From NCBI GenBank assembly GCA_027486005.1, contig JAIXPZ010000042.1, forward strand, positions 2,894 to 66,893: a stretch of 64,000 nt of DNA, read 5' to 3'. The DNA is from Legionellales bacterium (lineage in GTDB: Bacteria > Pseudomonadota > Gammaproteobacteria > JAGOUN01). Under the pieces are notes generated by a model. The model was not told the origin of the DNA and did no database searches. It saw only the letters and a program-made list of their open reading frames with translations. Below, in pieces: positions 8,958 through 26,951 of this stretch. A program made the translations under genes and the position numbers. Within the stretch, counting starts at the first letter, position 1, and every line of letters begins with the position of its first letter.

Positions 8958-11900
8958 TTACCTATTAGTTATGCCTTTTAGATTAACATTGTTTACGGCA
9001 AAAAAATCTATCTTTTGGAAGAATCCAACTTTTCTTAATGCTCCACCTGATTCATTTAATTTAAATTGTTCTGCATAGCCTAGATAAGAAACTGTTGATG
9101 TAAAAAATAATGCAAGTCCTATGGTAGGTTGGAGAGCAAATAATCCCATGCCAGCCATATAAATTATAGTATGGCCCCATCGACCTTCCTCAGCTGTATC
9201 ATTTTTCTTTTTGACTTCTAAAGCAACTTTATCTTTAGCGTCTTTAGTGGCAGGTGATTTTTCTTTAGCCGATAGCTCATCTAATTTATTTTGTGCCTCT
9301 GGATGACCATACGCTATTGCTTCTTGAAAGTAGAATTTTGCAGACTCTACATTTTTTTCATGAACATACAACATCCCTAAATAGAAATTTGCTTGTGGAT
9401 TACCACTTACTGCTGCCACTTTCAGTTCATATTTTTTTGTACAGTTTATTCGATCAAGATTTATATTAAAAACAGTATCTCCAGCCGCCAAGAAAATTTG
9501 TGCTGCTCTTTGAAAAAGCAAAAGGTTTATATAGAAAAGGTTATATGGAATGACCGCACAAACCATCGTAGAATATATCGAAATATTAATGTAATATTTC
9601 TTGAGATACGCTTCCCATGAATACAACATATCTTCCATGGTTTTAAAATAACTTACAGTGTCTTTCATGGAATTTAGTAAATCGCTCATGATTTTTTCTC
9701 GACTTGAGAACAAAGCCATCCCTCTTCTGTTACCTAAATTCTCTAAGAATTTTCCTAAAAACAATCGGCAATATGCTCCCCATTCATTTGGATTCGGCTC
9801 AAGAAAATAATGATGGATTTCAGGGATTTTTAACAGCTGCTCATGAACTCTAGCATCCATTAATCTTTCAAAAGTCAGGTTATTTTTTAAATCAAGCAAT
9901 ATGCTACCTATAGCAATCAACATTTCAATGCAAGGAGACACATAGCGCTCTAAGCGATAGTCGCCAATTTCACTTTTACCGCACAATTGGCGAAAATTTT
10001 TCGCAACAGATAAAACAGACTTAATTACATCTAAAATGTATAATGAAAAAGCCTGTGCGCTTGAAGCTTGTGTATTTACTAAAAGCACGAGGTTTCTTTC
10101 AACTACTTTAAGAGTTAGTTCTGCAAATCCAAGCGCAAGGTCAGCATTATGACGCCATGATTTTAAATTGTTATCTAATTGCTTATTCTGCACCCACAAT
10201 TTGTTCAACCAATAAAAAATATCTAACCCAAATTGAGCTGTATGAGCTCGACAAATAAAATAATTAATAGGCAATGCCTGCTCAAGAATTAGTGTATAGC
10301 GCAATAATATTTTTTCAGGCGTTACTGCTGGAGTATTATCATCCTTTTTAGAGCTATTTGGTAACTCGTCTACTTTTGTCTCCGGCTGAGCAAGATACGC
10401 AAAATGTATTTTTATTTTTTCTTCTAATGCCTGTTTTTCTTTTAAATAGTTTTCTTGATAAGCAAGGTATTCCTCGCTAGTCTTTATGGCTAATGCAATC
10501 TCAGATTCAGCCTCCATAAGCAGCTTAAGTTGCTCCTGAACTTTTTTCTCACTTGTTTTCAATGCTTCTATTTTTTCACTTTCATATTTTTGATGGTCAA
10601 CATGCAGCTTATTTAATTTAAATTCATAAATGCGAGAAATAAATGTATGAATACGAATATTATTTACATCATTAACAAGCGCTTTATTAAGAGTAACGAT
10701 TGCTCCATCTGAATCTTCGGAATGAAACTCCGCCATTGCTTGCATAACAAGAAGTTCAATTTTTTTCTGATCTTCAATATTATCAATAGGAATACCAGAA
10801 ATCATGGGGCGAACTTCTTTAAATTTATTTTGCTGCATGTAACAAATAAGCAGATAATGCTCGAGTGCAGTTTTCAAATCAGCCTGGGGTTTTAACTTTA
10901 TCAATTGATCTATTCGTTTTTCTAAATTTTCCCAAGGAGTATTCTCACTAGGCTGACTAAGCTCTACGGTGATAGCAAGATACTTTAAATATTGTATTTG
11001 AGGGTTTTCGTCAACTTTATTGGCATCATATGTGTCTGTTGCTTGATTATTTTCGACTTCCTTATTGCCAGCAAGCTGTGCGTGCTTTTTATATGCCTTC
11101 TCTAGTTCTGTTACCTTTCCCAAGTACTGTTTGTAAGCTTCGATCTCTTGCGCTATAAGAATAAGCTGTTTTTCCTGCGTAGGTTGAGCCATAACATTTT
11201 TTTGTATATTTGTTATTTCTTGATTTTTATGCTGATGTAATTGATTTTGCTCTTGAATATAACTGTTCGCTAATGCTTGCTGAGCCTGTTGAAAATAAGG
11301 AGCGTCGGCATTTATAGCTAAAAGAATTTTTCGCCCTTCGTTAATTTCATTAAGATCACTTTTTTGTGTTAAAATCGTTCCTTTTATCCATAAAGCAAAT
11401 ACATTCGTTTGTTCCTTCTCAAGCATTTTTTTTGCTTCAGAAAGAGCTTCTTCAGTTTTTCCTCGTTGATAATAGCAAATAGTTAAATCTTGGTTAACTA
11501 ACTGCGCACTGGGATTATCTGCCTTATATTTTTTTAAATCCTTTTCCCATTTCTCTAAATCTTCAGGTGAATCGCCTGGGGATGTTCTGATTGGATTAAT
11601 TAAATATGACAATTCATTATCTCTTTCGTATTTATAAACGCGACCATTTTGTCTTTGTTGATATTTATCCCATGCTGCGCGAGCTCGTGTTTGATCACCT
11701 CTATTGATAGCCATATATCCATTCAAAAGAATATTATGCATATTTCTGTCAGATTGACTCCAACCAACATCACTTGCCAACAGTGCAACTCCAGAACCTA
11801 TGACAACGGGAGCCGAGATAATAGAAGCAATCCCCCCGCTAATCGTAACAACAACGGTGCTTATCCATGGGACACCAGCAGCAGAAACATAAGCGGCTCC

Positions 11901-14900
11901 TTTAGCAACTATGGCTGCTTCTTGTGCTTGCCCCGCTAATTTGCCTGTTCCATCCACACACGCGCTTAAAGTTATCCAGTCATCTTCGGCTTGTTCTTTA
12001 CCTTGCTTAATAATATATTCATCATCTCCATATAGATAAGTAATCCCTGCGCTAGCTGTCCAAGCACCCAAACGCACGAATGTCGCTCCCCCAGTAAGTG
12101 TAAAATTGCTGTAGATTGCATCGGATATTGTGCTGACATTAATGACATCAAGACTACTGATAACGTTCACAATGTTACTAACATCCTTACCCGCTTGAAT
12201 AAGATTGGTACCTTGATAAAGAACAAACGCAGCTTTACTAATTAATTCGTTACCACTAAGATTAAATCCTGTTCCGAACATTTCTCCAAGCACGACTTCA
12301 TCAAAAATCAATGTTACCTGAAGCACACTACTTATCGTACCAAATGACAAGCCACTCTCCAGATCTAATAAAATAGATTGATATTGGGTGCCTCCATAAA
12401 TCAATTTTCCTCCTGATATGCATCGATTGCATACCCATGTAGATGCTTGACGAAGTTTTCCCATAGGTATAAGAGGAACAATCAGTTCTTTGAGCTTAGT
12501 TGCAATTATTTCAATACCTTTTCCAACACACCCTAATCCATCATTGTTTATTCTTTTACATAAATTTCTAATTTCTGAAAGATCATTGCCTTCACCTAAC
12601 ACTTTTTGTATTTCGGCTACTTTTTTAAAATCATTATTTTTGGATGCTTGATCCAACTCTTTCGCAAAACATTGTTTAAAATAAGCAGATCCATCTTCAA
12701 CTTTATCTTCTGGTGTCCGTTGATAATTTTGTATTTCTTGAGAATATTTTCGGTAATGATCGACGGCCTTTTGAAAACTTCCTTTTGAACTGTAATAGTT
12801 AAGGATATTTAAAATAGTATCAGGATTTTCTAATGAGCACAGATTTATCCTTTCTAAAATATTATTGATAGCCACGTCATCGGAGATTTTTGTTTTTTCT
12901 TCTTGCTTCCTATGAGCAAAAAACAATAATTCATCTAGTTGGCTAATTTTCGTCGCGTCAGCTTGATGTTTTAGCGCAAGCTCTCCTAACGATTTAATTG
13001 CATCAGCTTCCAGTCCTTGTTCAAGACTTATACTTGCATCTTTCAATGAATAAAAATACGCTTCTTCTGCAGAACTTGCGATAGCAACAAATAACTTACA
13101 AAGTTTAGAAGCTTCAGGATAATTTTTTACTTGTAATTGATGATAAATTTCATTATGTAACAAAGCTTTAGTTTCTACGCTGAACTCAGATTGATTTGAA
13201 AGTTTTTTTAATTCTCCTACTGCACTAACAAAATCTTTATCTCTAGCATACATGTATGCGCTTTGTTCGACTACTAATTGATCATTTGGGAATTTTTTTG
13301 CTAATTCATGAGTCAGGTTTTTAAATTTTATTCTCTCTCCGCACTGTTCATAAAGATCACGTAATTTATATAAACTTTGCGTATCTGTACGCTTTTCTAA
13401 AACAGGAATATATTTTCCTGCCATCTCTGGATGAGTGTCTTTGTGCTTTTCGTAAAGGGCGTCAAGTTCTTTAGCTATAGAATCTTTTTTTCTTTTACTT
13501 TTAACAGTTTCTTGATAATATTTTCTTTGATCAAATATATTGGCAATTTTTTTAAAATCCTGAATACGATAGTGCTCTTGAATGGCAGATTTTGAGCGGC
13601 CTTCAACGATTTCTGCCTTATTTTGAGAATCAAAAGGTTGCAATTTAATAAATTGTTGCAACATGGGCTGAATATTATTTGAATTGATAGCTTGTTTTAT
13701 CGCTTGGTGTTCAGATTTTTTTTCATCAGGAAAATATCCTGTTTGTTTTGCCTGCAAAGTGGATTGTTCATTATAAGCATTAAGACCTTTTTTTAAGTCT
13801 TTTTTTAAATCTTCATCTGGATGCTTGGACAAAAATGCAGATCTGGCTTCTGGTACATACTCTGGATTATTAATTCCTAACTTTAAAATCATATCTTTTT
13901 TATCAGAATTTAATTTTTGACTATTAAGCACCGTGTCTATAAATCTTTCCATTTGTCGTGGGTTTTTAAAACCTCTATCAATAGCGTCAAAAAAGCGCTT
14001 CATTTCCTTTTGTTCTGGGTTCAACTCATACCAAGCAGCAAAATCTTGAGCTAATCGTATAATGCCAATGACTACACTAGCTGACACCTGAATATCTACA
14101 TTCATTTCACCCGTGATGCTCTGAGAACGAACAACAAAATCAGGCTTTCCATCAGGTCGTATTACAGGCGCGATCGACCACTGAGGTTCATTAGGCATGA
14201 GGTGATGATAGCTTCTTCTAGGATCTGACAGTAAATGGTCAAGCACAATTTTTTCTTGCATTTTCTCATGGAAATCATTAAATACAGCGAGGGTTGGTCT
14301 TCTATTTTCTGGACAAACATTTTCTTGATGAACTGGATTTTGTGATTTTCTGTCAACTGCGATACGTAATAACACTTTTTTAATAAGGTCTATGTCAATT
14401 TTTGGTGAATTTTGTGGTAAAAGTAAAGTAGCAGTGTTAATAGGAGCAGCCGATTTCTCTGTATTTTCAGATTGACCAACTGCCGCATCGTGTACTGCTT
14501 TAACGTCATCATTAACAGTAGATAAAGTGGGTAATTGAGTTTCATCGACCGGAGTAGGGGTTTGCACAAAAAATGAATTTAAAAATTCTCGTAATTGAGG
14601 CTTCCAGCATTCCTCGGTAGGATTCCATAGCGATTCTGTAAGATTTTTTGATATTGGAAGAGATACAATATAAGCCAGAAATAATCCAGAGGCTGTTATA
14701 GGTGCTCCTGCTATTGATGCGACCGCAGAAGCAGCCATAGCAGGCATCAATACAAGTTCTCCGACACGAAAAGGACCTTCTGTTATATGATCAACAATAC
14801 TATTTAAACCAGAGCCTATTGTGTTTTCGTACCATTTCAGCCCTTGAAAAAATACATTTAGTCTTGTCTCTACATTATCCCATATTGTGGCCTCTTGTTT

Positions 14901-15221
14901 TAATAGGCTGCCCATATGATGAAGATCACGAGATTGGTTAGCTAAAGCTTTCCGTCCTGCTTGCCTACCTCCATATAAGTTTTCTGCATTTTTTATTGTG
15001 GCCTTAGGTGCCCAACGTTTAATTTGCTTCCTAGAAATCGTTTGCCCTTCTCTTAAAAGTTTAGGAATAGCATAATATTTAATTTTATTGCTTTCTTTTA
15101 TAGGAGTAACAAAATTTGAATTAAATGAATCGATAGTATCAGATGAAAGAAAATTTTTTTTAGTGGTTTTTGATTTTTCAGAAACAGAATTATTTTCTAC
15201 TTCGCTTATATTACGTTTCAT
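8958..15221 (-). CDS. Giant 2087-aa multidomain protein with Sel1/TPR-like repeats, extensive coiled coil and several TM segments; eukaryotic-like, effector-type
   Basis: Single uninterrupted 6.3-kb ORF. A Sel1-like repeat (GNPQANFYLGMLYVHEKNVESAKFYFQEAIAYGHPEAQNKL) lies near the C-terminus. Gly/Ala-rich hydrophobic stretches (AMAASAVASIAGAPITASGLFLAYIVSLPI; GGIASIISAPVVIGSGVALLASDVGW) and a C-terminal TM segment are present. Long K/E-rich coiled-coil regions run through the middle of the protein. Confidence 0.7.
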   Translation of the reverse strand: MKRNISEVENNSVSEKSKTTKKNFLSSDTIDSFNSNFVTPIKESNKIKYYAIPKLLREGQTISRKQIKRWAPKATIKNAENLYGGRQAGRKALANQSRDLHHMGSLLKQEATIWDNVETRLNVFFQGLKWYENTIGSGLNSIVDHITEGPFRVGELVLMPAMAASAVASIAGAPITASGLFLAYIVSLPISKNLTESLWNPTEECWKPQLREFLNSFFVQTPTPVDETQLPTLSTVNDDVKAVHDAAVGQSENTEKSAAPINTATLLLPQNSPKIDIDLIKKVLLRIAVDRKSQNPVHQENVCPENRRPTLAVFNDFHEKMQEKIVLDHLLSDPRRSYHHLMPNEPQWSIAPVIRPDGKPDFVVRSQSITGEMNVDIQVSASVVIGIIRLAQDFAAWYELNPEQKEMKRFFDAIDRGFKNPRQMERFIDTVLNSQKLNSDKKDMILKLGINNPEYVPEARSAFLSKHPDEDLKKDLKKGLNAYNEQSTLQAKQTGYFPDEKKSEHQAIKQAINSNNIQPMLQQFIKLQPFDSQNKAEIVEGRSKSAIQEHYRIQDFKKIANIFDQRKYYQETVKSKRKKDSIAKELDALYEKHKDTHPEMAGKYIPVLEKRTDTQSLYKLRDLYEQCGERIKFKNLTHELAKKFPNDQLVVEQSAYMYARDKDFVSAVGELKKLSNQSEFSVETKALLHNEIYHQLQVKNYPEASKLCKLFVAIASSAEEAYFYSLKDASISLEQGLEADAIKSLGELALKHQADATKISQLDELLFFAHRKQEEKTKISDDVAINNILERINLCSLENPDTILNILNYYSSKGSFQKAVDHYRKYSQEIQNYQRTPEDKVEDGSAYFKQCFAKELDQASKNNDFKKVAEIQKVLGEGNDLSEIRNLCKRINNDGLGCVGKGIEIIATKLKELIVPLIPMGKLRQASTWVCNRCISGGKLIYGGTQYQSILLDLESGLSFGTISSVLQVTLIFDEVVLGEMFGTGFNLSGNELISKAAFVLYQGTNLIQAGKDVSNIVNVISSLDVINVSTISDAIYSNFTLTGGATFVRLGAWTASAGITYLYGDDEYIIKQGKEQAEDDWITLSACVDGTGKLAGQAQEAAIVAKGAAYVSAAGVPWISTVVVTISGGIASIISAPVVIGSGVALLASDVGWSQSDRNMHNILLNGYMAINRGDQTRARAAWDKYQQRQNGRVYKYERDNELSYLINPIRTSPGDSPEDLEKWEKDLKKYKADNPSAQLVNQDLTICYYQRGKTEEALSEAKKMLEKEQTNVFALWIKGTILTQKSDLNEINEGRKILLAINADAPYFQQAQQALANSYIQEQNQLHQHKNQEITNIQKNVMAQPTQEKQLILIAQEIEAYKQYLGKVTELEKAYKKHAQLAGNKEVENNQATDTYDANKVDENPQIQYLKYLAITVELSQPSENTPWENLEKRIDQLIKLKPQADLKTALEHYLLICYMQQNKFKEVRPMISGIPIDNIEDQKKIELLVMQAMAEFHSEDSDGAIVTLNKALVNDVNNIRIHTFISRIYEFKLNKLHVDHQKYESEKIEALKTSEKKVQEQLKLLMEAESEIALAIKTSEEYLAYQENYLKEKQALEEKIKIHFAYLAQPETKVDELPNSSKKDDNTPAVTPEKILLRYTLILEQALPINYFICRAHTAQFGLDIFYWLNKLWVQNKQLDNNLKSWRHNADLALGFAELTLKVVERNLVLLVNTQASSAQAFSLYILDVIKSVLSVAKNFRQLCGKSEIGDYRLERYVSPCIEMLIAIGSILLDLKNNLTFERLMDARVHEQLLKIPEIHHYFLEPNPNEWGAYCRLFLGKFLENLGNRRGMALFSSREKIMSDLLNSMKDTVSYFKTMEDMLYSWEAYLKKYYINISIYSTMVCAVIPYNLFYINLLLFQRAAQIFLAAGDTVFNINLDRINCTKKYELKVAAVSGNPQANFYLGMLYVHEKNVESAKFYFQEAIAYGHPEAQNKLDELSAKEKSPATKDAKDKVALEVKKKNDTAEEGRWGHTIIYMAGMGLFALQPTIGLALFFTSTVSYLGYAEQFKLNESGGALRKVGFFQKIDFFAVNNVNLKGITNR

Positions 15222-15251
15222 AAAAGCTCCTAAATTATTTTATAAATATAT

Positions 15252-18200
15252 CTAAGCCCATGTCGCGCATAGTGTTTCTGCTTGCTCTAACACTAAGTCA
15301 ATTGCTGCGTCTTCTTTATCTTTTGGATATTTATATTTTCTCAAAATACGCCTCACCAGCAACCGAAGCTTAGCCCGTATACTTTCACGCACTGACCAAT
15401 CTACACTGACATTATTTCGAAGACTCTCTGTAAGCTCATATGCTATTTTCTTAAGCGTTTCATCGCCTAATTCTTTAACAGAAGCTTCATTATTTGCAAG
15501 AGCATCATAGAATGCTAGCTCGTCTTCATTAAGGCCTGTAGCTTCACCACGCTTAACCGCTTCTTGAAATTTTTTTGACATTTCACATAATTCTTCCATG
15601 ACCTGCGCAGTTTCAATCGCACGATTGTGATAACGTCGCATGGTATTGGTTAATAAATCTGAGAATTTTTTCTCTTGTACGACATTAGTAGCGAATCGTG
15701 TTTTAATTTCATCTTCAAGTAATCGTTCTAATAATTCAACGGCTAAATTTTTCTCAGGTAAATTTTGAACTTCTGCCAAGAATGCTTCGTCTAAAATACC
15801 AATATTGGGTTTATCGAGACCCACTGCGTCAAAAATATCGATGACTTCATTCGATACCACAGCAGAGCTAATAATTTGTCGTATCGCAAATTCACGTTCA
15901 TCGTTGGTGCGTTTCTTTTCTCTTTTTTCAGGTTTGGTGATGATGACTTTAATACCCTGCATAAATGCTACTTCTTCACGCACGACTTTAGCTTCATCTA
16001 AAGTGCAACATAAAGTGAATGCTTTCGCCATTGCTAATGCATTATCAGAAAACCGTTTTTTACCGTCATCTAAGCCCACAACATAATCGGCTGCTTTTCC
16101 TAGTAAACTGGGCGCGCACTTTAAAAAATCACTGTAATCAAAGCCATGTAGCATTCCACGTAAGACATCCAATTTTTCTTCCAATACTGCATACGCTTCG
16201 TGGACATCAATGGTGGGTCTGCCGTGTCCTTGGCTCGCAGTATATTCTTTTAAGGCTTTTTTCAAATCATTAGAAATGCCAATATAATCGACTACTAAAC
16301 CACCCTGCTTATCTTTGAAAACACGATTAACACGCGCAATCGCTTGCATGAGGTTATGACCTTTCATCGGTTTATCAACATACAAGGTATGAGCGCACGG
16401 TACGTCAAACCCTGTCAGCCACATATCGCGTACAATCACTAAACGCAAATCGTCGTTATGATCCTTAAACCTCCCTTCTAAATCTTTGCGTGTTTGTTTT
16501 GAATAAATATGCGGACGTAGCAAGGGCTTATCACTCGCGGAGCCTGTCATCACGACTTTCACTACACCAAGCTTGGGATCTTCATTATGCCAATCAGGAC
16601 GTAATGCGATAATCTCATTATAAAGATGCACACAAATATCACGACTCATGCCCACAATCATCGCCTTTCCAATTTGCACTTTGTTACGCTCTTCGAAATG
16701 CGTAACTAAATCTGCAGCCACTTGCTTGATTCGTGGTTCAGAGCCAACAATTTTTTCTAACGCAGCCCAGCGCGATTTTAGTTTTGCTTGTTCGCTGTCT
16801 TCTTCATCTTCGGCTAATTCATCGACGTCATCGTCCAATGCAATAATCTCATTACCATTTAATGATAACTTTGCCAATCGTGGTTCATAATAAATCGCCA
16901 CCGTCGCACCATCTTGTTGTGCTTGTTGCATATCGTAAATATGAATGTAATTACCAAATACTGCACGAGTATCTCGATCTTCACTTGATACGGGCGTTCC
17001 TGTAAATGCAACAAACGTGGCATTCGGCAATGCATCACGTAAATGTTGCGCATAACCGACTTTATATTTTTCGTGGCCTTCTTTACCTTTTAGCTCAGAG
17101 CTAAAACCATATTGCGTGCGATGTGCTTCATCTGCAATCACGACAATATTACGACGGTCCGATAACGTTGGAAAAATATCTTCATCTTCACCCGCCATGA
17201 ATTTTTGAATCGTTGAAAATATGATTCCACCAGAAGGCCGATTATTTAATTTAATTCGCAAATCTTGTCGAGACTCCACTTGCACCGCTTGTTCACGTAA
17301 TAAATCTTGCGATAATGAAAACACGCCAAATAACTGACCATCCAAATCATTGCGATCTGTGATTACAACAATGGTTGGGTTTTCCATTGCAGGTTCACGC
17401 ATCACTCGCGCGGCAAAACAGGTCATCGTAATGCTTTTACCACTACCTTGCGTATGCCAAACAACTCCTCCTTTGCGATCACCACCTGAACGTGAAGCAG
17501 AAACCACTTGTTGAATCGCTGCTCGCACCGCATGAAATTGATGATATCCAGCGATTTTTTTTATCAATGTATCTTTGCTTTCTTCAAATAAAATAAAGAA
17601 TCGTAAATAATCTAAAAAATAAACTGGCGCTAATATGCCACGCGTCAAAGTTTCTAACTCATGAAACTTCCCCAGCGGATCCAGCGTCACACCATCAATC
17701 GTCCGCCACGACATAAACCGTTCCATATCCGAAGACACAGAGCCCATGTGCGCTTCGATGCCATCGGAAATAACCAATATTTCATTGTATTGAAAAATAT
17801 CCGGTATCTGTTCCTTGTAAGTTTGTATCTGATTAAATGCTTTTCCAATATCCGCATTTTCATCAACAGGATTTTTTAGTTCAATTAAGACCAATGGCAA
17901 ACCATTAATAAACAAAACAACATCGGGCTTTCTCGTATGCTTCGCGCCCTTGATCGCAAACTGATTCACCGCCAGCCATTCATTAGCCGACGTATTTTCA
18001 AAATCAATCAAGTTCACAAAGTCGCCGCGGGTTTCATCATCTTTTTGATACTGCACTGGAACGCCATTCACTAAAAAATGATGTAATTGACGATTAGCGG
18101 ATAATAAAACAGGGGTATTTAAATCGCGCACTTGTTGTAACGCATCTGCACGTGCTGCCAAAGGAATCGTTGGATTTAGTCGATCAATGGCATTACGTAA

Positions 18201-18341
18201 ACGCTCAAGCAATAGAACACCTTGGTAATTGCTACGCTCAGGTGACGGCCCGTCACAGGCAATATCTGGGCCATAAAGATGCATATAACCGAGATTGGAT
18301 AACCAAGTTAGCATTTCCTGCTCTAATTTATCTTCTGTCAT
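15252..18341 (-). CDS. hsdR: Type I restriction enzyme R subunit HsdR
   Basis: Contains the DEAH helicase motif II (VVIADEAHRTQYG), the conserved HsdR N-terminal region and the C-terminal domain. The track ORF extends to 18383. The probable true start is MTEDKLEQ at 18341, because the upstream 14 codons lie inside a 20-bp direct repeat. Confidence 0.9.
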   Translation of the reverse strand: MTEDKLEQEMLTWLSNLGYMHLYGPDIACDGPSPERSNYQGVLLLERLRNAIDRLNPTIPLAARADALQQVRDLNTPVLLSANRQLHHFLVNGVPVQYQKDDETRGDFVNLIDFENTSANEWLAVNQFAIKGAKHTRKPDVVLFINGLPLVLIELKNPVDENADIGKAFNQIQTYKEQIPDIFQYNEILVISDGIEAHMGSVSSDMERFMSWRTIDGVTLDPLGKFHELETLTRGILAPVYFLDYLRFFILFEESKDTLIKKIAGYHQFHAVRAAIQQVVSASRSGGDRKGGVVWHTQGSGKSITMTCFAARVMREPAMENPTIVVITDRNDLDGQLFGVFSLSQDLLREQAVQVESRQDLRIKLNNRPSGGIIFSTIQKFMAGEDEDIFPTLSDRRNIVVIADEAHRTQYGFSSELKGKEGHEKYKVGYAQHLRDALPNATFVAFTGTPVSSEDRDTRAVFGNYIHIYDMQQAQQDGATVAIYYEPRLAKLSLNGNEIIALDDDVDELAEDEEDSEQAKLKSRWAALEKIVGSEPRIKQVAADLVTHFEERNKVQIGKAMIVGMSRDICVHLYNEIIALRPDWHNEDPKLGVVKVVMTGSASDKPLLRPHIYSKQTRKDLEGRFKDHNDDLRLVIVRDMWLTGFDVPCAHTLYVDKPMKGHNLMQAIARVNRVFKDKQGGLVVDYIGISNDLKKALKEYTASQGHGRPTIDVHEAYAVLEEKLDVLRGMLHGFDYSDFLKCAPSLLGKAADYVVGLDDGKKRFSDNALAMAKAFTLCCTLDEAKVVREEVAFMQGIKVIITKPEKREKKRTNDEREFAIRQIISSAVVSNEVIDIFDAVGLDKPNIGILDEAFLAEVQNLPEKNLAVELLERLLEDEIKTRFATNVVQEKKFSDLLTNTMRRYHNRAIETAQVMEELCEMSKKFQEAVKRGEATGLNEDELAFYDALANNEASVKELGDETLKKIAYELTESLRNNVSVDWSVRESIRAKLRLLVRRILRKYKYPKDKEDAAIDLVLEQAETLCATWA

Positions 18342-18451
18342 TTTCGTCCTCACTATCCTTTTCTCGGTTTTGCGATGAAGCACTTAAGTATTTGATTTAT
18401 AATAACTTTTAACATTTTAACTCTAATAATCAGGTTTGCGATGAAGCACTT

Positions 18452-19861
18452 TTATGCCCAAAATGGCAAATATTTGATATATCGTGTAGAGCTTGATTCA
18501 ACATCATCGAGTTTAATTAATCCTGCTTCCTTAGTCGCCTTAATAATAGCAGAAACAATAGTCGCCGCCGATTCTGGTAATTTGAACCGCTCCCGCAAGG
18601 TTTGATTCGACATTTTCTGGTGGTTAACATACAGCAAGCAGCAATGCTGATAACAAGCTCTTATCCTGTCTTTTTTGCTCATATCTGCAAAATCTTGATG
18701 CGCAAAAAGTATAGCGGTTGTGCGTATCTCTCCCACTCTAAAATCAGGCGCAGGCAATTGATAATCTTCAACTGCTTTTACAACCTTATCAACACCACTG
18801 CCCTTTTCTTCACAAATACCAAATCGGCGCATAATATCTGCTAATTTCTCATTACGAGATTGGTATTCATCAATAAAGCGTTCGACCTTAATCGAAGGCA
18901 GGCCAGGATTAGAAATTTCTAAACGATTAGAATACATTTCTATCATGACGGACATGCCTGTCATCGTAAAATCTTGATGCACCAGCGCATTAGCAATTAA
19001 TTCACGTAAAGCTTGTTTTGGAAACATTTTAATTTCTTCACGTACTCCTTGCTCAATAAAATGATTTTGCGGCGCAGCTGAATGAATAAAGTCAACGATG
19101 CTATCAAAATCAACCGCATAACCTTTTGTTTCTTGTTTATCATCCTGCGTAGAAAGTTTATCGATACCTTTATAAATAACAATACGAGGTGCTTTACGGG
19201 CTAAAGATGAAGAAAACGCATCTAAACGCTTCGCCAGTAAAATCGCTGCTAAATTTAAAATTATCCAACTACCATCTTCTTGCTTAATGAGGCCTTCTTT
19301 GGCAAAACGATCTAAAACCGCATCACGCGTGGTTGGATAAGGTAACTTCATCAAATCAAAATATATTTGTGTATCTAATAAAGAAATAACATCATCCGAG
19401 CTGGCATCTGTTTTAGCAGCTTGCTCTAACCAACTAGGTTCTCCTTCAGAAAAAATTCGGCGCAACTGATCTTGTGTCATGGGCACTAATTCTTCCCCGG
19501 AACGCATTAAATACTTTCCATCAAGTTGATATGCTTGTCCTATTAATCGAGAAGGAATTTCAAAAATCAATACACGCTCATCAGAATGGTGTAACTCAGT
19601 CACATCAACACGAAAATGTAATTTTGATAAAATATAAGATTTTATATCACCAATATTGAGAAACGCTTGGGTGCCAACAACTTTACGAGGAGGTTTATCA
19701 CTAACACCGAACACCAGATAGCCACCGCGTTCATTAGCAATAGCCACACAATATTCTAATAATTTCGTTTTATCATACTGTTGTTTAGCTTCTTTGAATT
19801 CAAGATTCTCATTTTCTTTTGGAATAATTAGCCAGCGATTTAGCATATCTAGGGTGGTCAT
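18452..19861 (-). CDS. AlbA_2 (Schlafen-like 'divergent AAA') + HATPase_c_4 putative DNA-binding ATPase, of the kind commonly embedded in Type I R-M loci
   Basis: N-terminal region NLEFKEAKQQYDKTKLLEYCVAIANERGGYLVFGVSDK matches the AlbA_2 core. A C-terminal HATPase-like region is present. It sits between hsdS and hsdR. Confidence 0.65.
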   Translation of the reverse strand: MTTLDMLNRWLIIPKENENLEFKEAKQQYDKTKLLEYCVAIANERGGYLVFGVSDKPPRKVVGTQAFLNIGDIKSYILSKLHFRVDVTELHHSDERVLIFEIPSRLIGQAYQLDGKYLMRSGEELVPMTQDQLRRIFSEGEPSWLEQAAKTDASSDDVISLLDTQIYFDLMKLPYPTTRDAVLDRFAKEGLIKQEDGSWIILNLAAILLAKRLDAFSSSLARKAPRIVIYKGIDKLSTQDDKQETKGYAVDFDSIVDFIHSAAPQNHFIEQGVREEIKMFPKQALRELIANALVHQDFTMTGMSVMIEMYSNRLEISNPGLPSIKVERFIDEYQSRNEKLADIMRRFGICEEKGSGVDKVVKAVEDYQLPAPDFRVGEIRTTAILFAHQDFADMSKKDRIRACYQHCCLLYVNHQKMSNQTLRERFKLPESAATIVSAIIKATKEAGLIKLDDVESSSTRYIKYLPFWA

Positions 19862-19891
19862 ATAGAGGCCTTATTCTATAAAAAATTATTT

Positions 19892-20710
19892 TCAGACATG
19901 AGGTTTTTTCGCTTCTTCAGTTTCTATTTTATGATAAACATCAATATATTTTTTGATAACTTCAGCCCCTGTAAAAAATTGAGTGAATTCGCCGTAGTTT
20001 TTGTCAATTGGTTTGAAATACTCTTTAGTTATGCAATCAGTTATTAACACTCCGTTTTCATTAACATCATATGAAACTCGCGCGGCTCGATCTATAAAGC
20101 AAGCTAAAATATACAGGCTTTTTGGTGATATTTTATTTGTCTTGGCTATGTCATATAAAATTTTGTCATCATGCTTCACAGGTGCGCCATGATAATCATT
20201 ATACTCTATGCCAAAGAAAAACTGATAAAAGTCAATTTTTGAAACTATATCAATCAAGCTATAAGCTGTATTAATATAATCGGTTAGATAGATTTCTATG
20301 TGTGCTTTTTCTGTTACTTTTTCGCACAAACCTTCAGTAGCCTTTAATGCATCAATCACTTTATGCCATATTATATTATTTTTCGCAACGGGCACAGATC
20401 TAGACTTGCGATCAATATTGAGTTCAGCAAAACCTTGAAAGTATTTCTGTATTTGTTCAAGATAGAACTTCGACGATTTTTCTTTAGAATCTTTACGGTA
20501 GTTACATATCGCATAAAGCAAGACTGCGGCAGTAAAAGCTGATCCTGAAGCTGTAAAATAATCTTTTTCAGATGGGCCTAATATTAAAAATATAACGCCC
20601 AGACTGAAAAAAATCAAAGTTAAAATAACGATAAAAATAGTTGCTATCAAGCTTAAATATTTTTTTATAATATACCACCATTTTTGGCGTGCAATATCTT
20701 TAGTGCTCAT
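19892..20710 (-). CDS. Hypothetical 2-TM membrane protein, partner of the Abi_C-like gene
   Basis: N-terminal hydrophobic helices (YLSLIATIFIVILTLIFFSLGVIFLILG and FTAAVLLYAICNY) followed by a soluble domain with no recognised motif. Its start overlaps the upstream gene's stop at 20710. Confidence 0.5.
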   Translation of the reverse strand: MSTKDIARQKWWYIIKKYLSLIATIFIVILTLIFFSLGVIFLILGPSEKDYFTASGSAFTAAVLLYAICNYRKDSKEKSSKFYLEQIQKYFQGFAELNIDRKSRSVPVAKNNIIWHKVIDALKATEGLCEKVTEKAHIEIYLTDYINTAYSLIDIVSKIDFYQFFFGIEYNDYHGAPVKHDDKILYDIAKTNKISPKSLYILACFIDRAARVSYDVNENGVLITDCITKEYFKPIDKNYGEFTQFFTGAEVIKKYIDVYHKIETEEAKKPHV

Positions 20711-21579
20711 TATGATATCTCTGTAGTTGTGTTCAGTTTTTCAACGTGTGTTTCAAATAAAAAAGTGACTAACGTTGCGGCGGCTCCAGCCGCAAGCTTT
20801 GCATGTCGGGATTGTAATGCTTGTGTTTTTGCTGGTTTACCATGCCCTGTCCCATATAGCCCTCGAAGTTGAGAAAGGTCATTTCCTATAGTGCCAAGGC
20901 TTCGCAAAATTGCTTTTATTAAATCAGAGCCTCGTTTATTATCTTCAACTCCTTCGGGAACTAGTGATAATTCTTTCAATAGCATTTTTGTTAATGTTGG
21001 TATATCGAGAGCGCCTGTTATCGGGATACCTCTCTCTTCAAGAATTGTTTTGCATGTTGTTTCGATTAATTCTTTAGCAGTACCAATAACCAAGGACGGA
21101 TCTGTTTCTACTGATTCTTTCATGCGTAGAATCTGCAGTTGAATGTGTGCCCCATCAAGCTTGTCAGGAAAACACATTAAATCATTAAATGTTGAGGGAG
21201 ATATCGGTTCGATTAATTTATTATTAATCCACTCTATACCGTCTCTTTTAAGTTGTGTCATTAGTTCTCCCGCAATATTACAATTATTTTCATAAGTAAT
21301 ATTGCAGTAGAAACCTAGAGGTTGAGCTGTAAGATCAAGAATTACATTTTCATAAACTTTTAATATTTTACGCACGCTAATCCGATTGGACCAGTTAACT
21401 GTATGGTAATATTGTTCCACCAGTATTCGCCGTTCACCACTAATACCTTCTGGCTGGTAACTGCTATCACAAAGGACTTCATATGCTTTAAACGCATCGT
21501 GAATTACGCGAAGAGTGCTATTGACAAAATATTCTCTAAATTTAATACGCGTTCTAATGCTGACAATTGATGACGTCAT
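20710..21579 (-). CDS. Abi_C-like (abortive infection C-terminus, HEPN-superfamily) protein
   Basis: C-terminal region NDLSQLRGLYGTGHGKPAKTQALQSRHAKLAAGAAATLVTFLF has the R-x6-H (RGLYGTGH) signature of the HEPN/Abi_C family. Its start overlaps the hsdS stop (21576-21579), indicating co-transcription with the R-M genes. Confidence 0.5.
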   Translation of the reverse strand: MTSSIVSIRTRIKFREYFVNSTLRVIHDAFKAYEVLCDSSYQPEGISGERRILVEQYYHTVNWSNRISVRKILKVYENVILDLTAQPLGFYCNITYENNCNIAGELMTQLKRDGIEWINNKLIEPISPSTFNDLMCFPDKLDGAHIQLQILRMKESVETDPSLVIGTAKELIETTCKTILEERGIPITGALDIPTLTKMLLKELSLVPEGVEDNKRGSDLIKAILRSLGTIGNDLSQLRGLYGTGHGKPAKTQALQSRHAKLAAGAAATLVTFLFETHVEKLNTTTEIS

Positions 21580-22901
21580 GCTGTGACCTCATATTCGCAT
21601 GACTTCAATTGCCCGGAAATTAAGCGTGGCAGCAATATATCACGTAGTGTTGAAAGAGTTTTAATTTGTTTTAAGTTGGCAGAAAATCTATTTCGCAGAG
21701 GCAAGGTCGATAAATCAAATGCATGCAGTACATCGTGGCTTGGAATAATAAGTTTGAGCTTTGCAAGCATTGAGCGGCTTAATTCTGTTTGGCCAGTGGA
21801 ACCTTCACCCAGTTGTTCAATTTCCGCTTGTCGATTTGAAAGCGCTAACCCAAGATAATTCCATGTTAATAATCCTCCCACACGGACTACAGTAACATGT
21901 GAATCAGCAATTATTGGTTCATCAATTGAGAGAATTTGTGCAACACGTCCAAGAGTGCCAACACCTGTGGAATTTACCAGTACATCTCCAACTAATAATT
22001 CTCGACCTTCAATTTTTCTTTGTGCAGGATCATGGGTGCGCGCTTTTGTTAAGTCAACAATATTATCCCGTATACACTTTTGATTGATGACAGTAATCCC
22101 CGCATTTACTGTATATTTGGGTGAGATGCCTCGGCTAAGATATGTGACTGTTTCTCCAAGTGAAGAAACTTTCCATCCTAATGGTATTAATCCCAGCTCT
22201 GACTCTTCAAAACTATCAGGAAAAAGTGCCGCTGTCTCTGCATCCATTCTTTCAGGTTCACGACCTTCAGCTTTTGCACGTACTGGATCGAAATCAATAA
22301 ACCAGGATTTGAAAAGGGTTTGAGCAATGGATTCGATGGTAATATTGCTTTTGCGTAGTAATTCGATACGATCATCAAGCGATCCTAAAATCTCTAAAAT
22401 TTCTTTTTGCTTTTTTAACGGCGGAACCGCAACTTGCATTTTGTCTACACGAGTAATGTAAATATGTTTGATCGTTGAGCCATCAGAATCATTTTCCATA
22501 ACTTGCTGGTAATAATGAGAAGATAAAAGATATTTCAAGAAGTACGGATTAATTAATTTATTTGGCCTCAATAAAGCAACGGATTGATTAATGCATAAGT
22601 TTTCTTTATCGACAACCGCTACTCTACCAATGGAGCCGTCTTTAGTGAGAAGCACATCACCAATTTTCGGTTTACTTTTATTGGACAGTTTATTAGTAAA
22701 TGCATCTAAAGTTGTCCGTCGTGCCGTTACATAATTTATGCGTCCGTCTACTATATCTTTTGCTGTTAATTTCCACGGGCCATCTTTAGCATCAGGCATG
22801 GGATTTGTAAATCCGTAAGTAATCAAATCTAAAAAGTGTCTTAAATCTTCAATATACCAATCGTTAGGAACAAGCCCAATTTCTGCTTGTTTAAAATTCA
22901 T
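21576..22901 (-). CDS. hsdS: Type I restriction-modification specificity subunit HsdS
   Basis: Two target-recognition-domain halves separated and followed by the conserved HsdS repeats (LRKSNITIESIAQTLFKSWFIDFDP and LRDILLPRLISGQL). Position between hsdM and hsdR. Confidence 0.9.
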   Translation of the reverse strand: MNFKQAEIGLVPNDWYIEDLRHFLDLITYGFTNPMPDAKDGPWKLTAKDIVDGRINYVTARRTTLDAFTNKLSNKSKPKIGDVLLTKDGSIGRVAVVDKENLCINQSVALLRPNKLINPYFLKYLLSSHYYQQVMENDSDGSTIKHIYITRVDKMQVAVPPLKKQKEILEILGSLDDRIELLRKSNITIESIAQTLFKSWFIDFDPVRAKAEGREPERMDAETAALFPDSFEESELGLIPLGWKVSSLGETVTYLSRGISPKYTVNAGITVINQKCIRDNIVDLTKARTHDPAQRKIEGRELLVGDVLVNSTGVGTLGRVAQILSIDEPIIADSHVTVVRVGGLLTWNYLGLALSNRQAEIEQLGEGSTGQTELSRSMLAKLKLIIPSHDVLHAFDLSTLPLRNRFSANLKQIKTLSTLRDILLPRLISGQLKSCEYEVTA

Positions 22902-23061
22902 AGCTAGGTCCTTTTGACTTTTTTGAATTAAATTTCTCCAGTAATGATTTTGTGACGCTCTGAACTACTTCATTAAGCTCACAATTACATTCATCTTCCT
23001 TTATTAATTGTGCTATAGCTTGTGCCTCAATTGAGAAATTATCTTTGTAAGCTCTCATCAT

Positions 23062-24618
23062 TTACACCTCAAACCCAAGTTTCGCTAAATTTTTACGAAT
23101 GAAATCATCCAAGTCAGCACCTTTCGTCATTTGATCTCCAAGCTTTGCAGTAAGTTTTTGCATTTTATCTACAAAAGCTTCTACATTATCTTCAACAGCT
23201 TCCGTGCCGACATAGCGGCCTGGGGTTAGTGCATGACCATGTTCTGTAATTTCAGCAAGTGATACGCTTCGACAAAATCCTGCAATATCAGCATATGTTT
23301 CTTTTGCTTCACCATCGCCACGCCACGCTTGTACAATATCAGAAATTTTTTGAATATCTGCGTCGGTGAATTCCATTTGCGAGCGGCTGATCATCGTGCC
23401 GAGCTTGCGTGCATCGAGGAAGAGCACTTCACCTTTGCGGAGAGTTTTATTTTTTGAGAGAAACCATAAACAAGCCGGAATTTGCGTATTAAAAAATAGT
23501 TGTCCAGGTAAAGCGATCATACATTCTACAACATCGGCTTCTACCATTTTTTTACGTATATCGCCTTCGCTATTTTGATTAGAGCTCATCGATCCATTGG
23601 CGAGAACAATGCCCGCGCGGCCGTTGGGTTTGAGATGGTACAACATGTGTTGCAGCCAGGCATAGTTGGCATTGCCTTGAGGTGGTGTTCCATAGACCCA
23701 GCGTGGGTCGTTGTCTAAACTTCCATGCCACCAATCAGAAATATTGAACGGTGGATTAGCTAAAATAAAATCTGCACGTAAATCTGGATGTTGGTTCTTG
23801 GTGAAAGTATCGCCAGGCTCTTTACCGAGGTTGAAATCGATACCGCGAATCGCAAGGTTCATTGCCGCTAAACGCCATGTCGTCGGATTAGATTCTTGTC
23901 CATAAATTGAAACGTCACCTAATTTTCCACCGTGTGCTTCAATAAATTTTTCAGATTGCACAAACATACCACCTGATCCACAACACGGGTCATACACTTT
24001 TCCATGATGCGGCGCGAGAACGGCCACAAGTGTTCGCACAATGCTAGCGGGTGTATAAAACTGTCCGCCCTTCTTGCCTTCAGAGCTAGCAAATTGGCCA
24101 AGAAAATATTCGTAAACCTGCCCTAATAAATCTTTTGCATTTTGACCAGCGGCACCAAATCCAATAGAAGAAATTAAATCGACCAACTCACCTAACTTGC
24201 CATCCGGTAATTGCGCACGCGCATAACGCTTATCAAGAATGCCTTTGAGCTTTGGATTATCTGTTTCGATCAGCGACAGTGCATTATCAATTAGTTTGCC
24301 AATATCAGGTTGCTTTGCTTGCGCTCGTAAACTTTCCCATCGAGCTGCTTCTGGAACCCAGAACGCATTCACTTCTCTATAATAATCACGGTCCTCTAAT
24401 TCTTTCGCAAGAGATTCTGCATCTGTATCATGCAGATAATATTCATCTTCTTTATTGGTAAAACGGCAAGTGAGTTCATCACGACGCATTTGAAAAGTAT
24501 CAGAAATATACTTCAAGAAAATTAAACCCAACACAATGTGTTTGTATTCTGCAGCATCCATGTTGGCGCGCAGTTTGTCAGCGGTTGCCCATAGGGTTTT
24601 CTTTATATCGTCTAACAT
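23062..24618 (-). CDS. hsdM: Type I R-M N6-adenine DNA methyltransferase HsdM
   Basis: N6-MTase motif IV NPPF (ILANPPFNISDW), an AdoMet-binding region (VYDPCCGSGGMF) and the HsdM N-terminal domain. Confidence 0.95.
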   Translation of the reverse strand: MLDDIKKTLWATADKLRANMDAAEYKHIVLGLIFLKYISDTFQMRRDELTCRFTNKEDEYYLHDTDAESLAKELEDRDYYREVNAFWVPEAARWESLRAQAKQPDIGKLIDNALSLIETDNPKLKGILDKRYARAQLPDGKLGELVDLISSIGFGAAGQNAKDLLGQVYEYFLGQFASSEGKKGGQFYTPASIVRTLVAVLAPHHGKVYDPCCGSGGMFVQSEKFIEAHGGKLGDVSIYGQESNPTTWRLAAMNLAIRGIDFNLGKEPGDTFTKNQHPDLRADFILANPPFNISDWWHGSLDNDPRWVYGTPPQGNANYAWLQHMLYHLKPNGRAGIVLANGSMSSNQNSEGDIRKKMVEADVVECMIALPGQLFFNTQIPACLWFLSKNKTLRKGEVLFLDARKLGTMISRSQMEFTDADIQKISDIVQAWRGDGEAKETYADIAGFCRSVSLAEITEHGHALTPGRYVGTEAVEDNVEAFVDKMQKLTAKLGDQMTKGADLDDFIRKNLAKLGFEV

Positions 24619-25100: not shown

Positions 25101-26951
25101 ATAAAAGGCTATGGGTGAGTAGACCAGGGGAATCTCACCCCTAGCCCCTCTTAGAACCGTACGTGACAGTCTCCCGTCATACGGCTCCCATTACTCAACC
25201 GGCGACGCTAGTCCATAGCGCCAATGCACAAAGAGTTGAGGATAGTGTTTGAATACTCTCCCCAAGTACCGTCTAGCTCTCTTTTTGCTTGCCTGTCCTG
25301 TATTGCTTGCATATTTGCGTTGCGCCCATCTTTGCAGATGTTTCTCTATCTGCACAAACGCCTCTGTCACTTCACTTCGATAAAATCTTCCATAATAATT
25401 CACCCATCCACTGACTCGCGGATTGGTTAATTTCGCCAGTTCCTTGAGTGACATACAGGTCTTTCGATGCAGACGCCAGCTGCGAATGGTTTGGCGAATG
25501 GCTGTCTTCGCTGCATTGCTTATAGCGGGAACAAAGCCGACAAAACCTTTGCCTTCTTTACTCATGACTAATCTTCTTCTGAAGGTGTAGCCTAAGAAAT
25601 CAAAGCTTCTGGGTATGTCTTCTTTTTCTTCTTTAGCTACGCCACAGTAAACAACTTTCGTTTTCTGCGGATGCAATTGCAGCTTGCACTGCGCCATTCG
25701 AGCCTCAATTTCTGCTTTGAGCTGTAATGCCTCATTTTGTGATGTGCAATGGACAATAATATCATCAGCATAACGCTCAAACTGAACGTTAGGGTGTTGT
25801 TTTCTTATCCATTTATCAAACACGTAGTGCAGAAAAATATTCGCTAACAATGGACTTACAACCCCGCCTTGAGGCGTGCCTGTTGTTCTGGGTTGCAATG
25901 ATCCATCGGCCAATTGAGCTGGAGCTCGTAGCCAATGTTTCACGTGCAACATTATCCATCGATCGATACTGTGCTTTTCTAGCGCCAATATGAGCAATTC
26001 ATGATCAATATTGTCAAAGAAACCCTTAATATCAAGATCGATCACCCAGTCACGCTTCCAGCAGCGCTGCCGACATTGTCCCACCGCATCGAGCGCTGAC
26101 TTGTTTGGTCGATAGCCATACGAGTCTTGATCAAAACGGGGTTCGAAGTGAGGCTCAAGGTGCATCGTGACCACCATTTGAGCAATACGGTCGGCGACCG
26201 TGGGTATTCCCAAATAGCGTTGTCCGCCGTCTTTCTTCGGTATCGCTACCGTTTTCACGGGCGGTGGAAAGTAACTGCCTGAGGACATTCGATTCCACAG
26301 TTTATACAGATTGTCTTTGAGTTTTACCTCAAAGTCTGCAATCGACTGGTTATCGACACCCGCCGCGCCTTGGTTACGCTTTACACGCAAATACGCTTGC
26401 CATACATCCTGTTTAGGAATAGCAAACGGTTTTGTTTTACTCAAAAGTTCCTCCCACCATTGGTTGACCTCTAACTAAAACGGAGTAACTCAACCCCTTC
26501 GCTCCATAGCCATTACAGCCACTTCAACACTACTACGGGTTGATCCGCCCCTGTGCTCTGCGTTGGTATTTTCTCTTGGCTTTTATACCTCGAAAGTTCC
26601 CTTATCATCAGAACGACAGGTTCCCGCAGTTCCATACTTAAGCCTAAAATAGGATCATGCTACCTCTACACCGGACACCGCCTATCCAATCATCAGGCCC
26701 CCGATAGACTTTATTCCTAGAGCCATAGAACTCACCCTAGTTTCGATGTCGTCCGATCCATTTCGACGTGTCAACGGTAGTTCACTTGCGTTCATCTTCC
26801 TATTTCGCACATGACTGTTAAAACAGCCTTTTCCTTATCGCTCACTACCAGGGCTCTTTACCCTAGCAGCATAAGGTTGTTTAAAGCCTACTCCTGAAAG
26901 TCGGCTTTGGTGGGCCTACCACCATCTTAAGTGCAGCTTGCTGCGGCACAC
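25101..26951 (-). mobile_element. Group II intron, about 1.85 kb, encoding an En-less RT/maturase; boundaries are approximate
   Basis: The minus-strand 5' end reads GTGTGCCGCAG (reverse complement of 26941-26951), matching the GUGYG consensus. Domain V reads GAGCCGTATGACGGGAGACTGTCACGTACGGTTC (reverse complement of 25154-25187). Domain VI reads GGCTAGGGGTGAG...CTCACCCATAGCC with a bulged A (about 25107-25150). The RT ORF sits in domain IV. Confidence 0.85.
25191..26444 (-). CDS. Group II intron-encoded reverse transcriptase/maturase, no endonuclease domain
   Basis: RT blocks are present (AIPKKDGGQRYLGIPTVADRIAQ and YADDIIVHC, the YADD active site). A maturase X-domain tail is present and there is no H-N-H motif. 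Confidence 0.9.
   Translation of the reverse strand: MSKTKPFAIPKQDVWQAYLRVKRNQGAAGVDNQSIADFEVKLKDNLYKLWNRMSSGSYFPPPVKTVAIPKKDGGQRYLGIPTVADRIAQMVVTMHLEPHFEPRFDQDSYGYRPNKSALDAVGQCRQRCWKRDWVIDLDIKGFFDNIDHELLILALEKHSIDRWIMLHVKHWLRAPAQLADGSLQPRTTGTPQGGVVSPLLANIFLHYVFDKWIRKQHPNVQFERYADDIIVHCTSQNEALQLKAEIEARMAQCKLQLHPQKTKVVYCGVAKEEKEDIPRSFDFLGYTFRRRLVMSKEGKGFVGFVPAISNAAKTAIRQTIRSWRLHRKTCMSLKELAKLTNPRVSGWVNYYGRFYRSEVTEAFVQIEKHLQRWAQRKYASNTGQASKKRARRYLGRVFKHYPQLFVHWRYGLASPVE

Follow-up and report, generated by a model that had tools for sequence, protein, structure and literature searches.

The window analysed here, a 64,000-nt stretch of DNA from a Legionellales bacterium in whose coordinates all positions below are given, contains a Type I restriction-modification (R-M) operon. 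This report is concerned with two genes embedded in that operon, at positions 19892-21579. The first encodes a protein of 289 amino acids (aa) with an Abi_C domain of the HEPN superfamily; the second encodes a 272-aa membrane-anchored protein, referred to below as the TM (transmembrane) protein. A preliminary description of the sequence had given the gene order as hsdM, a small open reading frame (ORF), hsdS, the Abi_C gene, the 272-aa gene, a gene for an AlbA_2/HATPase_c_4 protein and hsdR, and had regarded the Abi_C and TM genes as a two-gene cassette. An ORF scan placed all seven consecutive ORFs where they had been reported, all operon genes lying on the minus strand, and the domains were recovered by Pfam and further profile collections as follows:

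23062-24618, minus strand: hsdM, Type I R-M methyltransferase, 518 aa; Pfam N6_Mtase (E=6e-112) and HsdM_N, PADLOC MTase_I (E=1.5e-179)
22891-23061, minus strand: ORF of 56 aa between hsdM and hsdS; no match in Pfam, NCBIfam, PADLOC or PHROGs
21576-22901, minus strand: hsdS, specificity subunit, 441 aa; Pfam Methylase_S in two stretches, PADLOC Specificity_I (E=2e-123)
20710-21579, minus strand: Abi_C / AbiJ-type HEPN protein, 289 aa; Pfam PF14355 (E=1.2e-21), PADLOC AbiJ (E=2.9e-8)
19892-20710, minus strand: membrane-anchored (TM) protein of an orphan family, 272 aa; no family or fold match
18452-19861, minus strand: SLFN_AlbA_2 + HATPase_c_4 protein, 469 aa; Pfam (E=7.6e-16 and 2.7e-22), PHROG 12156 'DNA helicase' (E=1e-42)
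15252-18383, minus strand: hsdR, restriction subunit, 1043 aa; Pfam HSDR_N, SWI2_SNF2, T1R_D3-like and T1RH-like_C, PADLOC REase_I (1182 bits)

As far as domains can tell, the Type I R-M set is complete, comprising HsdM, an HsdS with two target-recognition domains, and an HsdR with nuclease, motor and C-terminal parts; the genes are full length. The junction between hsdS and the Abi_C gene, at 21576-21579, is an ATGA overlap (gcATGAcg), and the one between the Abi_C gene and the TM gene, at 20710, reads TAATG, a stop/start overlap of a single base (caTAATGag). The AlbA_2 gene starts 30 nt beyond the TM gene, with an AAGG within the gap. While both overlaps are thus exactly as they had first been reported, the co-transcription with the R-M genes that had been deduced from them is better described as plausible: the overlaps speak for it, and the promoter-like and terminator-like sites within the operon showed no excess over the shuffled expectation. 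The embedded genes are somewhat poorer in G+C (0.32-0.38) than hsdM and hsdR (0.41-0.43). Both the TM gene and the Abi_C gene are real genes and not chance ORFs, because their homologues are under purifying selection, with a dN/dS ratio of 0.17 in each case (TM protein, window versus locus L001; Abi_C protein, window versus locus L016).

All the proteins encoded in the window were compared by tblastn with the 23 loci that had been retrieved up to that point. The Abi_C gene was present in none of the nine other loci of the TM family, and a TM-family gene in none of the six other Abi_C loci, the co-occurrence of the two being confined to the window and its identical copies. Among related hsd operons, the two genes were distributed as follows:

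Window: Abi_C gene present, TM gene present
L016: Abi_C gene present, as the sole insert between hsdS and hsdR; TM gene absent
L001 and L002: Abi_C gene absent; TM gene present (sole insert in L002, surviving insert in L001)
L024: Abi_C gene absent, TM gene absent; PDC-S06 in the slot

Because all four combinations are found, the Abi_C and TM genes are best interpreted as modules that occupy the same recombination-prone slot independently of each other, and not as an obligate pair. The cassette, which had been put forward as a plausible abortive-infection or toxin-sensor pair, is not supported by these counts; the preliminary description had itself named a failure of the two genes ever to co-occur outside this locus as the finding that would speak against it, and this is what the sample contains.

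The comparison with L024 delimits the exchanged segment. In a blastn alignment, the DNA of L024 is 93.9% identical to the window over 25000-22198 and 94.8% identical over 19889-15242, and nothing aligns between these two stretches. The variable block (19890-22197, minus strand) comprises the second half of hsdS, the Abi_C gene and the TM gene. Its equivalent in L024 consists of a different second half of hsdS, a gene recognized by PADLOC as PDC-S06 (E=5e-241), whose product is an ABC-ATPase protein with weak similarity to PrrC, and a foreign remnant of the N-terminal part of hsdR. The remnant is an ORF of 94 codons that follows PDC-S06 (positions 6411-6695 of L024) and is 48% identical to residues 15-110 of the HsdR of the window; it is a scar left by cargo exchange through recombination between hsd operons. 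The AlbA_2 gene, which is 93% identical in L024, survives as a 29-codon remnant in L001 and is absent from L002 and L016, and is likewise present or absent independently of the other two inserts.

The assignment of the 289-aa protein to the AbiJ/Abi_C family of the HEPN superfamily is solid by sequence criteria. In the Pfam scan, the Abi_C profile PF14355 scored 77.1 bits against a cutoff of 24, with positions 1-83 of the model aligned to residues 194-276. The sequence RGLYGTGH occupies residues 239-246 of the 289. Its R239 and H246 do not vary among 28 homologues that are 48-62% identical, and the R-x6-H motif from which an Abi_C/HEPN protein had first been suspected is intact. The HEPN domain at the C-terminus is preceded by an N-terminal domain (approximately residues 1-145) that is conserved in the subfamily and matches no Pfam family at E<=0.1. 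This domain may be a swappable module, as suggested by the fact that the two halves of the protein match separately in two IMG/VR viral contigs (residues 141-278 at 6001-6414 of L022, and residues 5-126 at 2118-2492 of L023). Two closer identifications were considered and discarded. Orthology to the lactococcal AbiJ proper was rejected, since the similarity is limited to the C-terminal part (the PADLOC AbiJ model covers residues 159-277, with model positions 164-276 of 281) and the N-terminal domain has no Pfam match. The architecture of the PrrC/RloC-type anticodon nucleases was not found either, neither Pfam nor PADLOC revealing an ABC (AAA_13) ATPase domain in the 289-aa protein; the gene does resemble that of PrrC in its location within a Type I hsd operon that is complete, full-length hsdM, hsdS and hsdR flanking it.

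The Abi_C family is large (>2886 homologues, with relatives annotated at NCBI as 'abortive infection family protein'), and the closest relatives of the window protein are 50-62% identical to it across the full length. The three close homologues whose context was sampled besides the window (50-61% identity) all lie within Type I hsd operons (3/3). The gene order in L016 is hsdM, a 58-aa ORF, hsdS, Abi_C and hsdR, with the same 4-nt overlap with hsdS as in the window; identity to the window proteins is 85% for HsdM and 82% for HsdR. In L014/L015, hsdM is followed by a nucleotidyltransferase pair fused to hsdS, by a gene for a 321-aa protein of unknown nature, by the Abi_C gene and then by the KwaA gene of a Kiwa system, while L017 contains hsdM, hsdS, a DUF6119 gene and the Abi_C gene, and then one nuclease-like and one GmrSD-like gene. 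Plasmid-encoded Abi_C proteins that are more distantly related (30-49% identity, with different N-termini) are found outside R-M operons, still with defence-related neighbours such as DUF4145 and Hachiman. The protein is a member of a subfamily habitually encoded directly after hsdS, of a kind already described in 2013, and there is nothing new in kind about it.

AbiJ-type HEPN proteins in R-M operons were indeed described by Anantharaman et al. (2013; PMC3710099), who proposed that, like PrrC in EcoprrI, they are second-line suicidal RNases restrained by the R-M system. The window protein shares with them the C-terminal Abi_C domain with its invariant Rx6H motif and the location of its gene, directly after hsdS in a Type I operon; it differs in that its subfamily has a conserved N-terminal domain, whereas the R-M-embedded AbiJ proteins are mostly devoid of an N-terminal domain (PMC3710099). 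According to a 2026 review, no information has so far been available on the mechanism of AbiJ itself (PMC13064643). The only experimentally worked-out model is PrrC, encoded in the Type Ic operon EcoprrI, which the R-M complex holds in a latent state and an anti-restriction factor releases. As in that operon, a gene for a HEPN-type RNase is predicted inside the hsd operon of the window; unlike PrrC, the protein encoded here lacks an ABC/AAA_13 ATPase domain. If PrrC/EcoprrI and the general model of HEPN proteins in R-M systems (PMC3710099) are taken as a guide, the Abi_C protein is most likely a latent RNase coupled to the R-M complex. A failure or inhibition of restriction would set it free, and it would then shut down translation and so abort the infection. 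The domain, the motif and the conserved hsd linkage were observed here, and the RNase activity, the coupling and the trigger are inferred by analogy.

The TM protein has no match in Pfam, NCBIfam, PADLOC or PHROGs, a sequence-profile search of the PDB returned nothing, and neither did a Foldseek search of the BFVD viral predicted structures at E<=0.001. It belongs to a small orphan family that matches no Pfam, PADLOC, PHROG or PDB entry, as had been surmised when its family was first called unrecognized. Relatives are rare. Only four were recovered when 5.8 billion proteins were searched by word index, and a profile search of the word-indexed database with the TM family only six, while an exhaustive search of 1.84 billion cluster representatives yielded 58 of them at E<=0.001. 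A search with a motif-rich sub-alignment retrieved three loci from metagenome-assembled genomes and one TARA locus, which was a duplicate. None was found in GTDB genomes with an alignment of close homologues, and none in IMG/VR, among the PLSDB plasmids or among GenBank phages. The TM-family loci that bear names all belong to uncultured Gammaproteobacteria.

The description of the 272-aa protein as a two-TM protein was right in substance, with the qualification that the segment at residues ~19-46 is strongly hydrophobic and that at residues 52-70 only moderately so; in the AlphaFold model, the hydrophobic segments form a helical hairpin. One or two N-terminal hydrophobic helices are retained in 47 of the 49 family members, and are followed by a conserved soluble domain of ~200 aa. 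Since basic residues lie on either side of the hydrophobic hairpin, this domain is, by the positive-inside rule, presumably cytoplasmic. The invariant or nearly invariant residues of the family are S80, N112, W115, H116, H137 and G167, and they fall within the motifs S-x-FYL-x-QI, NNNIKWH (IIWH in the window, with N112, W115 and H116), TE-x-x-H (with H137) and FFYG/FFFG (with G167). Modelled by AlphaFold2 with the family alignment, the protein is all-helical with good confidence (full protein: pLDDT 89.5, pTM 0.83; isolated domain: pLDDT 86.9, pTM 0.83), and the second membrane helix is continuous with the first helix of the soluble bundle. Judging from the order of the helices, NNNIKWH and FFYG should be located far from the membrane, and S80 and H137 close to it.

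Several identities for this protein were examined and rejected. Scans of the 49 family members against Pfam, PADLOC and PHROGs gave only isolated weak matches to transmembrane models. Known membrane effectors and holins (PADLOC 2TM effectors, KwaA and Abi models; PHROG holins) were discarded, as the matches of members were single, weak (E>=2e-4) and each to a different model; such matches may be explained by the composition of TM helices. A HEPN identity of the soluble domain is contradicted by an hhalign probability of 0.1% against Abi_C, the one HEPN family that this comparison covered, and by the lack of a conserved Arg, the conserved polar residues being N112, H116, H137 and S80. Finally, the H...HD...D motif on an HD fold, which defines the HD-domain phosphohydrolases, was not found in the soluble domain.

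The nearest parallel is one of general plan. The lactococcal AbiC and AbiP are single-gene, membrane-anchored abortive infection proteins with one or two N-terminal TM helices and a soluble domain (PMC13064643). The TM family has the same plan of one or two N-terminal TM helices and a ~200-aa soluble domain, is encoded by a single gene, and is likewise located on mobile elements. No sequence relationship to AbiC or AbiP was detected, however, and the Abi models of PADLOC miss both the window protein and the 49 members, the likeness being one of architecture alone.

In the three closest homologues of the TM protein (44-74% identity), its gene is directly upstream of AlbA/hsdR in operons of the same hsd family, with no Abi_C gene. 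The closest (L001, 74% identity) contains uvrA, a tail of hsdS consisting of its final ~32 codons, the TM gene, which overlaps this tail, the 29-codon remnant of the AlbA_2 gene mentioned above, and an hsdR whose product is 85% identical to that of the window. This locus (positions 9862-14152 of L001) is chromosomal, beside uvrA, and retains an orphan, intact hsdR together with the TM gene, having lost hsdM, the greater part of hsdS and the AlbA gene. The TM gene, to which the dN/dS of 0.17 given above refers, is under purifying selection in spite of its decayed neighbours. L002-L005 (44% identity) show a frameshifted hsdS tail, the TM gene and hsdR, the stop codon of the TM gene overlapping the start of hsdR by 4 nt in L002.

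Distant members of the family (23-46% identity), which share its motifs and architecture, occur in loci without any hsd genes. In L010 the TM gene is monocistronic and lies beside a decayed AbiLi/AbiLii pair. In L011 it directly follows an HTH-peptidase S24 repressor gene, on an element that also encodes VirB4 and a phage replication protein, and in L018 it is preceded by a small HTH gene and adjoins a gene with a Panacea antitoxin domain. In L021 it follows integrase, AlpA and primase genes in a satellite-like element. In L019 (221-2133), it is 2 nt upstream of a DUF4917/SIR2-like gene recognized by PADLOC as PDC-S21 (E=1e-107). L019 is the only case seen in which a TM-family gene may be in one operon with another effector outside an hsd locus. 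The TM gene is usually solitary, either adjoining defence or toxin-antitoxin genes or as cargo of a mobile element, and its product appears to be a self-contained single-gene module and not a partner of the Abi_C protein.

The best overall explanation, to which we assign a probability of about 0.65, is that the window contains a seven-gene Type I R-M operon on a conjugative element, and that the stretch between its hsdS and hsdR genes is a recombination-prone cargo slot holding three independently assorting accessory genes. One would encode the Abi_C protein, acting as the latent RNase outlined above, and the AlbA_2/HATPase_c_4 gene would be a third, independent passenger. The TM protein would reside in the inner membrane by means of one or two N-terminal helices, exposing a rigid helical domain of ~200 aa in the cytoplasm; this domain might sense a phage-derived or stress cue, and the membrane helices might execute the response. 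A role of the TM protein as a stand-alone abortive infection or exclusion protein, built on a plan like that of AbiC/AbiP, is the likeliest of those considered but a tentative proposal, to which we give somewhat less than even odds. Its fullest version would be that the 272-aa protein founds a new single-gene, membrane-anchored anti-phage family of ~58 clusters, mostly from uncultured Gammaproteobacteria, whose distal patch (NNNIKWH and FFYG) senses infection while the membrane helices execute the response; this we regard as conceivable but rather unlikely.

A number of observations weigh against this explanation. The contexts were sampled at ~10 independent loci for the TM family, several of them on short contigs, and at the three loci mentioned above for the close Abi_C subfamily. 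A defence role for the TM protein is suggested by its neighbourhood alone, and in two of the contexts, L012 and L020, no obvious defence genes were seen. It is thus conceivable that the TM protein has no role in phage defence and is a hitch-hiking mobile-element gene, encoding for example an addiction toxin or a protein for entry exclusion or some envelope function. The lack of homology to any defence model and the fact that the window itself is a conjugative element would be in keeping with this possibility, but the gene recurs next to AbiL, PDC-S21, Type I R-M genes and a Panacea toxin-antitoxin module, and in those cargo sites of mobile elements in which defence genes tend to collect, which makes it improbable.

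The position of the TM gene directly upstream of AlbA/hsdR in the three closest homologues, and its overlap with the start of hsdR in L002, also leave room for a functional link to hsdR. The TM protein might then be an accessory of HsdR, for example tethering it to the membrane or regulating it there, with or without the AlbA_2 protein, and the joint survival of the TM gene and hsdR in L001, where hsdM, hsdS and AlbA were lost, would fit such a role. This appears quite improbable, considering that the distant members keep the same motifs and architecture in loci without hsd genes. The least likely alternative is that the Abi_C and TM proteins are, as originally envisaged, a dedicated abortive-infection or toxin-sensor pair in which the membrane protein senses infection or restrains the HEPN RNase: the one-base TAATG overlap suggests translational coupling in the window, the two genes lie within the one block in which the window differs from its near-identical sister locus L024 and may have arrived together, and a close Abi_C homologue in L014/L015 also precedes a membrane protein gene, KwaA, but the tblastn counts (0/9 and 0/6) and the operons in which either gene is found without the other (Abi_C as the sole insert in L016, the TM gene as the sole insert in L002 and the survivor in L001) tell strongly against it, and KwaA in L015 is one half of Kiwa, a different system, and has no relationship with the TM family.

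The insertion of cargo genes into the operon finds a counterpart in other Type I operons with embedded defence genes, such as TgvAB in VPI-2 of Vibrio cholerae, the candidates of Payne et al. and PDC-S06, in which foreign defence genes similarly interrupt an hsd operon that is otherwise complete. TgvAB is different, in that it is a true two-protein system that needs both genes, while the genes in the window appear to assort independently. The view that Type I R-M loci are collectors of anti-phage genes, which had been expressed at the outset, is supported.

As for the wider setting, the window encodes a conjugative backbone at 27912-55122 and 7363-8814 (both plus strand), with a ParA-like ATPase, a conjugative ATPase of the PFL_4706 type, TraG_N, a coupling protein, topoisomerase III and a DUF3987 primase-like protein, and on the basis of these genes it is identified as a conjugative element. 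The closest relatives of the conjugative ATPase are found on Legionella plasmids, at an identity of only 38%. Just upstream of hsdM there is a complete group II intron (25114-26923, minus strand), in which Rfam places domains D1-D4 at 26810-26923 with 112.6 bits and domains D5-D6 at 25114-25189 with 58.5 bits, on either side of a reverse transcriptase/maturase ORF at 25191-26444; its G+C content is 0.46, compared with 0.37 for the window. On the other side of the operon, 31 nt past the stop codon of hsdR, lies an ORF of 2087 aa (8958-15221, minus strand) with no match in Pfam, NCBIfam or the PDB sequences. It is another variable cargo gene, because the identity with L024 ends at 15242, at the start of this ORF.

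Three related operons have an ORF of 56-58 codons separating hsdM from hsdS (the window; L024, 2620-2790; L016, 5615-5791). The 56-aa product in the window is 86% identical to its counterpart in L024, and no similarity was detected between it and the 58-aa product of the ORF in the equivalent position of L016.

Nothing in this analysis shows a new mechanism. Only the membrane protein invites further attention, being rare, well folded by model, and recurrent in defence and cargo positions, which makes it a cheap candidate for a plaque assay. If it does protect, it would add one more single-gene membrane abortive infection protein, a useful addition that would leave the thinking of the field unchanged. 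The locus as a whole illustrates clearly how cargo is exchanged combinatorially in nature, with five related hsd operons showing five different contents between hsdS and hsdR, one of them still keeping an hsdR remnant as a scar of recombination, and it supports the Type I slot as a place in which to search for new defence genes.

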